64,000 nucleotides of DNA from the NCBI RefSeq assembly GCF_003018115.1, contig NZ_CP027457.1; one strand, written 5' to 3'. The position numbers were made by a program. Below, one piece after another: positions 56,801 to 59,800 of the stretch. The stretch is from Escherichia coli (GTDB taxonomy: Bacteria > Pseudomonadota > Gammaproteobacteria > Enterobacterales > Enterobacteriaceae). Position 1 is the stretch's first letter. Each line of letters starts with the position of its first letter.

Positions 56801-59800
56801 TTCAGCAGGCTAACAAGGTTGGTCGGCGCTGTCGGGATGGTTACTGATACGCCAGAGTAAACAACCTCTGACTTCTTGCGAGTAGTGGCATACTCCAGAG
56901 CATCGATGCGCGTTTCATGGTCTGAAACCTGCGATTCCAGCGACTGAACTCTGGTATCAAGCGACGCAATATCGCTTTCATTCTGCGCTATTCGTGTTTC
57001 ATGTTCCTGAAGAGTTGATTCTGCCTGGCTGATTCGCTCCTCATGATTAACAAGCGTTGCTTCCGCAGCAGAAATTCGCTGCTCATGGTCAGCGAGAATC
57101 ACATCCTGCTCATCGTTCCTGACCTGTGCATCATAAGCGCCCTGTCCGGCCTCGTTGGCCTTGTTAGCCACGTTACCAACATCAGTGCCCTGTGCGATAA
57201 CGTAAAGCAGATACGACTGCGAGAAGATATTGCGTGGAAGGACTGATGTGTCGAGCCGTGTAGCCTGAATGATTACCGGCACATTGAGATTCGAATCAGC
57301 CATTACTCAATCCTTATCTGGCAGCCTGACAGAGTGACAGGTGACTTCGTGATAACGCGCAATTTGAAGCCGACATTTTTCCTGATGCGCCCGACTCGCT
57401 TCCACAAAACACGTTTGTCGTAAACGAACGGTTCATTCTGTTCAATCATCTGCTCACGTCCGTAATTTATGCCGTCAGTGGTTGCAGAGAGGAACAGGCG
57501 GTCGGCGTACTGCGCAACGCCAGTTGACGATTCAACCTCAAGGTCGAACACTCTGGCGTTATCCGCTTTGAACAACGGAGTAAACAGCAGGTGTTCCTGT
57601 TGCTTGTCGTACTGGCTGCTGATGTCGAATTGCAGTTTCCCGGTAACAGATTCCAGCTTATCGCCGCACGTTATCTGATTGCCTTCGTAAATGAAGTCGA
57701 TAGCGCGGTACACATCGTCATACAGGCCTGTTTTCAACACACACCATTGCGGACCATTGGCGCTTGAAGATGCGTCGTACACGAGGACGTGACGCGGAAG
57801 GTGGATAATCAGCAACTCATGAGCATCAAATCGCAGAGACTCCATCACGCCATCAGCCAGTTCATCAGCAGTGTAGGAGCGGAGGATTTTCTCAATGCTC
57901 GCGCTGGCGATTGGTGATACCTGACCAGATCCGATGATGTATACAGACGGCGCACCCGTTGCCGGATTGCTGATGAACGCATACGAATCAGCAAACGGCG
58001 TTTTGCAGTAAGTCCCGGCGATGCCTTTTTGCACCATCAGCGATGGCTGGGCGACATACAAAGCAGCACCAACGGTGGTTGCACCAGTCAGGGAAAAATA
58101 CTCAATCGTCGATGAACCAAAGCAGACGATGAAGTCTCGCCATGTCCCGATACCGATAATGCCGTCCGGCTGCGATTCTGCGCGATATTGTGCACTGTAT
58201 CGGTCAGGGTGCGATTCGTCTCCAAGGTCAGTGATAAACCATGAATCAGTGCCGTCTTTTGACCACGCATAACGCCCACGTAAGCGTGTAATGTCGCGGA
58301 CTGAACCTAACTCATACTGCGTAAATCCGCTGTCTGTAGGCCAGTTTGAGACGGTTTTAACCGTACCATCATAGCGATACTCGACCAGTTGACCATTAAC
58401 GCCTACCGCTTGTGATGTCCGACCATGTGCCATTGATACGCGACCACTTCCGGCGACGTCACCGACTTCGCTTTCGCCCTTATACAACTTGCTACCACAC
58501 ACGCGATAAACAGCACTCTGCGCCATGTTGTACTCGACGCCGCGCGATACTCCGTTCACATCAGAACGTTTGGCAATGCCCGGGAATGAGCGAAGATATC
58601 CGCTGCTGTTCAGGATTTCTTTGGGTGTAGCCAGCATATTTACTGGCAGATAGTCGATATAGTCGGCGTTTCGAAAGTCTTTGCCGACACCTTTCATAAG
58701 CGGAAGTTGCTGAATCGGCATTATTCGCTCCCGTTATCGCAAGGTTCCTTTCGGTGGAAGTAATTCCAACCGTTCCACTTCGCCAACTGGTTACCGCTAC
58801 CAACAGGCATACGGTTTGGATAACCGGACTTACATTTAGCGGCTTTTGCTCTGTCCATTGCAGACAGTTTGACGAGTCGCTCTTTCCCGTATCTGGCAGT
58901 GGTTATAAGTTTTGCAGACGCTTCCAGCGCATAATCTGGAGCAATGCGGCAGGCAAGGTTGAAAATGACGGCATTAATAGCGTTATTTGATAAGCCGTGC
59001 TCATCGCCCGGATCCGGAGCAACATCTGCATCAGCAAAAATGTAGCCAACGTTGATACCAGGTGACGCATCACCGCCAAGCCATTCAGCCATCATCATTT
59101 CAAGGTCGTTAACGCCGTCTTCCATAGACTGCGGTTCGACATCGGTTAACGTGGCATTTGATGCCACACCGAGCTTACGTAATGCCGCAAGAACTAAATC
59201 ACCCTTCGTTGTCAGGTTCATCTGCTGCCGCCTTAGGTTTTCGACCAGGCTTTTTACGCTGTTTTTCTTCTGGCTCTGCAATGGCCGGACGCAAACTCAG
59301 GAGTCGTCCAAGAACATCATTTGCTTCATGACCATCCCACTCTTTCCCGAACTCAAGCTCAGTACCTTCAGGAAGGAACTCGATTTCTTCAACAGGTAGG
59401 TGATAAGTGATTTCGCCTTCTGGAGTGGTGATACCAGCAATAATCCAGCCATCCCACTCTTCACCGTCACTGTGTTTGCGAGACCACCACGAAAGCTCAG
59501 CGTAAGCATGCATCAGCGATGAGAAGAGGCGCACTCGGTGAGCGTAAAGCTCGTTAAAAGTGTGATAACCGTCGGACACTTCGCCCATATCAACTGGGGA
59601 AGTTTCACCTACGCCAACACTCCCAATTTGATCACCAACAAGAGGATCATCAGGAACATCGTCAGGGTGCTTATACCAGCCATTTGCTAAGTGCACAGCT
59701 ACATCATCAGGATCAACGGTTTTCGTTTTCAGCTTGCGCCCCCATATTTTGGTATCTCCGCCAGCCTGAAAAATCATTACGCTCATTGGTATCTCCAATA

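Follow-up and report, generated by a model that had tools for sequence, protein, structure and literature searches.

What is the gene that separates the coat gene from the head-tail adaptor gene in the P22-like late operon of this Escherichia coli contig, and what might its product do for the phage? The question was raised by a first-pass annotation, made from the sequence alone, of a window of 64,000 nucleotides (nt) of contig NZ_CP027457.1 (assembly GCF_003018115.1); positions given below are those of this window unless another sequence is named. At 59199-59786 the annotation had described an open reading frame (ORF) as an extra gene, lying between two genes that it took to be adjacent in P22, and had offered a capsid decoration protein, an accessory protein or a moron as its possible identity. 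We identify the ORF as the long allele in the gene 6 (orf69) family, whose members fill the coat-gp4 slot of P22-like phages, and find that its product consists of a resident scaffold and a WDGH domain (Pfam PF25311) that is optional and moves horizontally. As a feature of the genome, the gene is already known: it is annotated, and it is a standard constituent of the late operon in P22-like phages. For the WDGH domain we propose, as a reading that is quite possible though short of probable, that it is an accessory module for counter-defence, carried by a resident late gene.

Results

The ORF belongs to the gene 6 family of P22-like phages

The ORF lies on the minus strand (59199-59786; ATG at 59784-59786, TGA at 59199-59201) and encodes a protein of 195 amino acids (aa; 21.8 kDa, pI 4.72, 7 Trp). 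That this is a genuine gene rather than a chance frame follows from the matches of its product to the Pfam WDGH family over aa 68-165 (134.8 bits against a cut-off of 27, E=1.3e-39) and to phrog_3769 over its full length (E=4e-101), and from the cluster of 99%-identical 195-aa proteins, which has 1,929 member sequences. The ORF list, these matches and the locus order identify it as the long, WDGH-containing allele; the score lies above the gathering threshold of the WDGH family, and the conserved motifs of that family are present. What the first-pass annotation had read directly from the letters was borne out: the frame encodes 195 aa and has a good ribosome-binding site (RBS), with GGAGA 5 nt before the ATG; the core is acidic and rich in Trp (the WDGH part has a pI of 4.55, with 7 Lys+Arg against 21 Asp+Glu) and is followed by a basic tail (motif at aa 175-185); a 9-bp UUCG stem-loop at 59803-59824 follows the coat stop; and the overlap with the gp4 start, put at about 20 nt, measures 23 nt.

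Membership in the gene 6/orf69 family is evident from the slot, the N-terminal module (hereafter N-module), the basic tail and the overlap with gene 4. In P22, orf69 (P22 positions 6135-6344) sits between gene 5 and gene 4, after an annotated stem-loop, and gene 4 starts at 6328, before orf69 ends at 6344; coat and adaptor genes are therefore not adjacent in P22, contrary to the premise of the first-pass annotation. The P22 Orf69 product, MKIAIYKPGGSIMVWGVMAQMKVIDSSELPEYVKDGWLDHPSKLLPVEADDVKPRKGRKPKAVSDADKD, corresponds to the window protein with its central domain removed, leaving the N-module and the basic tail, and aligns to ST64T Orf186 over aa 1-44. A comparison with the Sf6 map, one of those named by the first-pass annotation, places Sf6 gene 6 (61 aa; the HKbT of HK620) in the same slot, after the 't coat' terminator and again as a short allele. 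The slot is thus occupied in P22 (orf69), in Sf6 (gene 6) and in the closest E. coli phages (88-aa versions), and the gene is not extra. Long alleles, with 62-63% identity, are found as ST64T orf-186, L Orf186, gene 6 of epsilon34 and g341c, and ST104 ORF54, as well as in SE1 and BTP1. The order coat, N-module plus WDGH, gp4 holds in 63 of the 80 IMG/VR loci recovered with the WDGH profile, and the overlap between the stop of the gene and the start of gene 4 is also present in P22, ST64T, Sf6 and APC_JM3.2. RefSeq labels the E. coli copies 'hypothetical' or 'WDGH domain-containing protein'.

The window protein shares slot, architecture and gene 4 overlap with the Salmonella long alleles (epsilon34, ST64T, L, ST104, BTP1), the 62-63% identity being measured over aa 1-167. 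It differs from them as an E. coli variant: it ends in the very C-terminal tail that the E. coli short alleles have, the linker between N-module and WDGH is longer (the proteins measure 195 aa against 186 aa), and there is a single Glu-Pro unit. The short alleles (P22 Orf69, Sf6 gene 6 and the 74-88-aa E. coli versions) have in common with it the slot, the hairpin, a homologous N-module, the basic K/R-G-R-K motif, the acidic end and the overlap with the adaptor start, but the WDGH domain is wholly absent from them. The description 'accessory' suits the central WDGH domain, which some phages have and others lack although they are otherwise 98% identical. The first-pass annotation would have withdrawn its claim for a standard, already annotated component of P22-like late operons with a known function; the gene is indeed such a component, without the known function.

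That gene 6 homologues vary in length was already noted in the epsilon34 genome paper of 2008, in which the P22 and Scho1 versions are described as internally deleted, the P22 homologue as 'partly deleted', and gene 6 as non-essential in P22 and of unknown role (Eppler et al. 1991, as cited there; PMC2629481). Our literature search on P22 orf69 turned up only unrelated papers, and a paper on the evolution of Sf6 deals with its gene 61 rather than with gene 6.

Expression signals and the late operon

Within the late operon, to which it belongs, the gene uses an RBS of its own; the overlap links it to gene 4. Directly upstream in the ORF list lies the coat gene (P22 gp5-like, 431 aa; 59830-61125, minus strand), whose DNA is 98% identical to that of the E. 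coli Lederbergviruses APC_JM3.2, IME10 and Louie and whose equivalent is labeled 'P22 phage major capsid protein family protein' by PGAP. In the stretch that separates the coat stop (59830-59832) from the ORF, RNA folding gives the hairpin on the minus strand, a 9-bp stem with a UUCG tetraloop (AGAGGGAGC-UUCG-GCUCCCUUU), and the 56-nt segment that contains it (59780-59835) folds at -19.2 kcal/mol (z = -2.5). The hairpin is invariant in APC_JM3.2 and Louie, and its equivalents are annotated as a stem-loop in P22 and as the 't coat' terminator in Sf6. A simple terminator scan did not flag it, probably because the folded stem reaches into the T-run. The Shine-Dalgarno sequence GGAGA, read from the sequence, occupies 59792-59796 on the same strand. 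At the other end, the last 23 nt of the ORF (59199-59221, minus strand) overlap the start of the head-tail adaptor gene (P22 gp4-like, 166 aa from the ATG at 59221; 58721-59221, minus strand), which was assigned from the ORF list and the locus order and is labeled 'packaged DNA stabilization gp4 family protein' by PGAP. The start of this gene is most likely the ATG at 59219-59221, with AAGG before it at 59231-59234, and the N-terminus predicted from this ATG agrees with that of P22 gp4.

These signals bear on the suggestion of a classic moron, which would have its own promoter and terminator and be expressed from the prophage to the benefit of the lysogen. A crude consensus scan found no sigma-70-like promoter site between the coat gene and the ORF, and a scan for terminators found none after the ORF, the end of which lies inside the gene 4 start region; the gene is instead translationally linked to gene 4. 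Presence and absence among close relatives, the trait that speaks for a moron, applies to the central WDGH part (41 of the 216 genomes described below) and not to the rest of the gene. For BTP1, the passages on the prophage transcriptome in the published study report no lysogenic expression of the gene, and there the low late-gene signal of the prophage is ascribed to spontaneous induction (PMC7067206). A search of PADLOC-DB with the ORF product and three other WDGH proteins returned no defence-system match. We consider a moron very unlikely.

The operon has a second variable slot. In Louie (locus L002, 1577-2104) and Dewey, an HNH endonuclease gene on the opposite strand lies between the head scaffold gene and the coat gene; the window has no HNH gene there, and the stop of the head scaffold gene and the start of the coat gene share position 61125.

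Domain architecture and predicted structure

AlphaFold2 modeled the full protein with a mean predicted local distance difference test score (pLDDT) of 86.8, and the protein can be divided into four parts, all encoded on the minus strand. The N-module (aa 1-46; 59649-59786), delimited from the model, phrog_1175 and alignments, ends in a GW-x-HP motif and is predicted to form a beta-hairpin and a helix (strands 3-14 and 17-24, helix 26-34; pLDDT about 90). It matches phrog_1175 over aa 1-44 (E=2e-14) and aligns with P22 Orf69, the APC_JM3.2 88-aa protein and Sf6 gp6, with 15-44% identity in the family. An acidic linker (aa 47-64; 59595-59648) follows, which is predicted to be disordered (pLDDT <50 at aa 52-60) and is variable in sequence among homologues. 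The WDGH domain (aa 65-166; 59289-59594), set by the PF25311 match, gives when modeled alone a pLDDT of 93.8 and a predicted template modeling score (pTM) of 0.84, and in the full-length model is predicted as a compact alpha/beta fold with helix 77-94, strands 99-102, 114-121 and 124-131, and helices 132-137 and 155-163. The Glu-Pro/acidic tail (aa 167-195) has no regular secondary structure in the model (pLDDT about 66-72) and contains a basic, AT-hook-like motif (aa 175-185; 59232-59264), recognized from its variants in the family.

Across Gram-negative and Gram-positive members, the WDGH domain has about 20 invariant or near-invariant positions (S71, D72, G73, H75, T76, E79, Y81, H83, R84, W100, S102, H105, D107, T127, Y128, H129, W150, D151, G152, H153 and R161), and about 17 near-invariant polar residues per 100 aa. 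So many conserved His, Asp, Arg and Tyr residues in a stretch of about 100 suggest a catalytic site or a tight ligand pocket. Sequence and profile searches of the PDB yielded chance-level matches only (PARG, E=1.2; H-NOX, E=0.4) and no solved fold relative, and Foldseek against viral models matched only other uncharacterized WDGH proteins. A fold relation to a known decoration protein was also tested, with a negative result. The idea of a capsid decoration or accessory structural protein, which the first-pass annotation had offered among others, draws on the location beside the coat gene only; in virion gels of epsilon34, which carries the long allele, there was no band for gene 6 and none beyond Dec (PMC2629481), and WDGH proteins elsewhere are mostly stand-alone early or accessory proteins. 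We therefore hold decoration to be highly improbable, and the protein is unlikely to be an abundant virion protein of any kind.

The basic motif of the tail takes several forms in the family, among them KKPGPKPKA, KRGRKSKA, KKRGRPTKV and TRGRKPKA, with KPRKGRKPKA in P22 and SKRGRKA in Sf6. The AT-hook core is R-G-R-P; the window sequence KKPGRKPK has no RGRP, one homologue reads KKRGRPTK and others KRGRK or TRGRK. The existence of variants in which the Gly is changed to Ser or to Asp argues against a strict AT-hook. In one variant the motif precedes the Glu-Pro linker, an order which means that the gene 4 RBS does not by itself explain the motif.

A small, dispensable protein with such a motif, encoded at this place, brings to mind gpFI of phage lambda. 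On the lambda map, FI comes immediately after the major capsid gene and is followed by the head-completion genes, and on the P22 map orf69 has the corresponding position. The gpFI protein is described as bound to the gpE lattice and has been proposed to act via non-specific DNA binding (PMC4856287). By analogy, the gene 6 scaffold could be a packaging chaperone, the N-module of which would bind the procapsid or coat lattice while the linker and the basic motif would touch DNA non-specifically, aiding the docking of terminase and DNA; the WDGH domain would then be a passenger or a modulator. Both proteins are small and modular, have a flexible acidic linker and are unreported in virions, and the gene 6 family as a whole is built of two short modules, the flexible linker and the conserved K/R-G-R-K motif, the last of which is no mere RBS by-product, as the variant order indicates. 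That gene 6 is non-essential in P22 and left no band in epsilon34 virions also fits. On the other hand, we detected no sequence or fold relationship to gpFI, and no packaging phenotype is known for orf69. We judge this role of the scaffold to be unlikely, though worth bearing in mind; it is compatible with a counter-defence role of the WDGH part.

The Glu-Pro tract is encoded by a (GAGCCA)n microsatellite, located at 59265-59288 in the window and in the same region of the compared loci L012-L077. The (Glu-Pro)n run leads from WDGH to the basic motif and has from one to >10 units among otherwise identical alleles, the window having the shortest; the APC_JM3.2 record annotates the stretch as a repeat_region.

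Mosaicism of gene 6

The nearest phages (APC_JM3.2, HZ41, IME10, Louie, Dewey and CurroJimenez) are about 98% identical to the window in coat and gp4 genes and cover 79% of the query; the part left uncovered is mainly this ORF. APC_JM3.2 has an 88-aa short allele, the last 23 residues of which are those of the window protein. Louie likewise has a short allele with the identical tail between flanks 98% identical, and IME10 is also without WDGH. Alignment of the DNA with the short allele places the mosaic joints just past the RBS and at GCAGAGCCAGAAGAAAA. Among 5,426 complete E. coli genomes, the flanks were matched in 216, and 41 of those 216 have the full WDGH allele. A search with an N-module profile returned 357 clusters, of which the best 120 all comprise 47-88 aa without any Pfam domain; among these best 120 matches there was thus no alternative cargo domain on the N-module scaffold. 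From these comparisons, the short form of gene 6 appears to be the common state.

The WDGH domain is also found in much more distant surroundings. The P22-like phage L031 (IMGVR_UViG_2636415690_000005, match at 5001-5318) is 27% identical to the window in the coat protein, 42% in gp4 and 35% in the N-module, but 92% identical in WDGH, and in another locus, L029, the N-module is 50% and WDGH 93% identical. The high identity of WDGH amid such divergent coat proteins and N-modules argues that the domain moves as a cassette; as judged from these alignments, it moves between divergent P22-like head modules and always into the gene 6 scaffold. The case of L031 implies a recent exchange, at the level of a single domain, between very divergent head modules.

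A skeptical reading of the same data would be that the scaffold mainly keeps ribosomes going into the gene 4 start and that WDGH is a selfish or neutral passenger in frame. Such a reading would explain why the stop overlaps the start of gene 4 in each of the four phages examined, why the N-module has diverged widely, why (Glu-Pro)n runs differ freely in length and why the gene is dispensable in P22. It does not account well for the strong constraint on WDGH, whose invariant or near-invariant positions are maintained over thousands of clusters, for the 92% identity that the domain keeps while moving between divergent modules, or for the confidently predicted fold of the N-module. We therefore consider it quite improbable.

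Distribution of the WDGH domain

The WDGH family is large, with 4,665 clusters at 50% identity (E<=1e-3), 3,706 of them at E<=1e-10. It occurs in 198 INPHARED records, mostly of Listeria, Bacillus and Salmonella phages; other hosts are Streptococcus, Lactococcus, Klebsiella, Staphylococcus, Erwinia and Arthrobacter, and cyanophage S-2L has it as well. The domain is typically a stand-alone protein of 100-150 aa encoded among small early or accessory phage genes. The window protein has all the motifs in common with the family (phrog_3392, phrog_21846, phrog_16023), namely SDGYHTF-ELY-HR, H-DG, TYH and WDGH, as seen in Listeria phage P100 gp128 and in the WDGH proteins of Klebsiella phages LASTA and SopranoGao and of cyanophage S-2L. 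Whereas the family members elsewhere are usually stand-alone or lie within other uncharacterized early or accessory proteins, a WDGH domain on the gene 6 scaffold in the late operon is confined to P22-like phages.

Two temperate Streptococcus phages provide, with a stand-alone WDGH gene, a second, independent case of WDGH inside a late or head operon. In phiARI0468-4 (locus L006, 3908-4303), the WDGH gene lies between the genes for the portal and minor capsid protein 2; in Javan199 (L100, 2423-2791), it has portal-side genes on one side and the genes for scaffold and major capsid protein on the other. A different neighborhood is conserved in aquatic metagenomic phages (L081-L089), where a stand-alone WDGH gene stands between genes for a DnaB-type helicase and a family-2 glycosyltransferase, with no relation to the sponge genes treated next.

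Association of WDGH with immune-signal sponges

Among the 150 best representatives of the family, the co-occurring domains were Sequestin (PF21825, n=7), Lar restriction alleviation (n=3), DUF551 (n=2) and YodL (n=1). Sequestin was found after WDGH and also before it (in protein P0178), and diverged members are included; the two domain orders and the divergence indicate several independent WDGH-Sequestin fusions. One protein, P0101, is a triple fusion of Tad2, WDGH and Sequestin, encoded between lysis and terminase genes in a phage with a P22-type portal. Sponge genes also adjoin WDGH genes: a Tad2-like gene is immediately 5' of WDGH in loci L009 and L093, and an Acb2/Tad1-hairpin gene is immediately 3' of it in L094, where a Tad2+Sequestin gene is close by. 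At a distance of 2-3 genes from WDGH, Acb2/Tad1-hairpin genes occur in Klebsiella phage LASTA (L076) and in the metagenomic loci L078 and L088, and in Bacillus phage Nate the direct neighbor of WDGH is a NADAR gene.

What looks like a counter-defence island is found in a group of temperate phages of enterobacteria, in which Tad2-like, Tad2+Sequestin, WDGH and Acb2/Tad1-hairpin genes appear in varying fusions and orders (L094, 1031-2122 and 5523-5846; L093, 4108-4953; L009, 5071-5952; L008, 6001-6798).

Sequestin itself was discovered as a sponge for 3'cADPR through fusions of PF21825 to Tad2 and Acb4, in a study that does not mention WDGH (Tal et al., bioRxiv 10.1101/2025.07.12.664507). The fusions and adjacencies described here are evidence of the same kind as that which led to Sequestin. 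Like Tad2 (PF11195), Sequestin (PF21825) and Acb2/Tad1 (PF24729), WDGH is small, phage-restricted and patchy in distribution. Two further candidates were compared with WDGH by description and distribution and rejected: Lockin is a hexamer of mostly beta structure and does not occur in INPHARED, and Acb5 occurs mainly in Streptomyces and Mycobacterium phages.

Other features of the window

Another ORF (56455-57303, minus strand) encodes a gp26-like tail needle of 282 aa, in which a long stretch of heptad repeats (HETRI...) is accompanied by an extension of about 130 aa at the C-terminus. It presumably resembles the knob-bearing needles of the Sf6/HK620 type more than the P22 needle.

Discussion

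These findings show how the gene is expressed and built, and suggest what its product may do. The gene is transcribed with the late operon, past the post-coat hairpin, and translated from its own GGAGA, with its last 23 nt overlapping the gene 4 start. The resident scaffold comprises the 45-aa N-module, the Glu-Pro linker and the basic AT-hook-like motif, and WDGH is inserted into it in frame; the scaffold would mainly supply expression signals and perhaps proximity to DNA or to the procapsid. The WDGH domain may be an accessory counter-defence module, most likely an enzyme or a tight binder, that acts on a nucleotide-derived host immune signal or a related metabolite. The coat protein is a common trigger of cyclic-nucleotide defences, as escape mutations in capsid genes for CBASS and Pycsar indicate. 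WDGH would be coexpressed with this protein. We hold this counter-defence reading tentatively.

Several points weigh against it. Late expression would be unusual for an inhibitor of early immune signaling. The loci L009, L092, L093 and L094 look like one phage group, so that they do not count as independent associations. WDGH is fused to Tad2 or Sequestin and adjoins Tad2 and Acb2/Tad1 genes in Gram-negative phages, but ten loci from Gram-positive and other phages had no Tad2, Sequestin or Acb2 neighbor, and the best 120 Firmicutes-clade proteins included no sponge fusion. WDGH is the sole Pfam family matched by the ORF at E<=1, and no known sponge or enzyme domain was among the matches. Its invariant set, rich in His and Asp, looks more like a catalytic site than the pocket of a sponge. 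In the literature we found no experimental paper on WDGH or PF25311 proteins, and the WDGH motif is absent from the supplements of two large anti-defence screens.

The difficulty of timing would be removed if the protein were packaged. In such a scheme, the tail or the N-module would carry a few copies into the capsid with the DNA, and WDGH would be ejected into the next host to act at once, reconciling late expression with an early-acting counter-defence. The gene is in the head cluster, 5' of the ejection-protein genes; the AT-hook-like tail could tether the protein to DNA; and Streptococcus phages have independently placed WDGH in a head module. The gels of epsilon34 virions showed no extra band, although a low-copy protein would escape gels, and the majority of phages with WDGH encode it in early or accessory regions and with no such tail. 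On balance, packaged cargo seems to us improbable.

Returning to the counter-defence reading, its fullest form would be that WDGH is a widespread counter-defence domain, an enzyme or high-affinity binder directed against a nucleotide-derived signal or an NAD or ADP-ribose metabolite, and that in P22-like phages it has been set in a late protein coexpressed with the coat, possibly tethered to DNA or the procapsid, or packaged. Put so broadly, the proposal is doubtful, and we offer it as a conjecture. The value of the finding lies in WDGH as a testable lead: the family is large, the model of the domain is compact and confident, and no solved structure is related to its fold. The natural pairs of phages with long and short alleles, whose flanks are about 98% identical, amount to near-isogenic material in which the contribution of the domain to the biology of P22-like phages may be sought.

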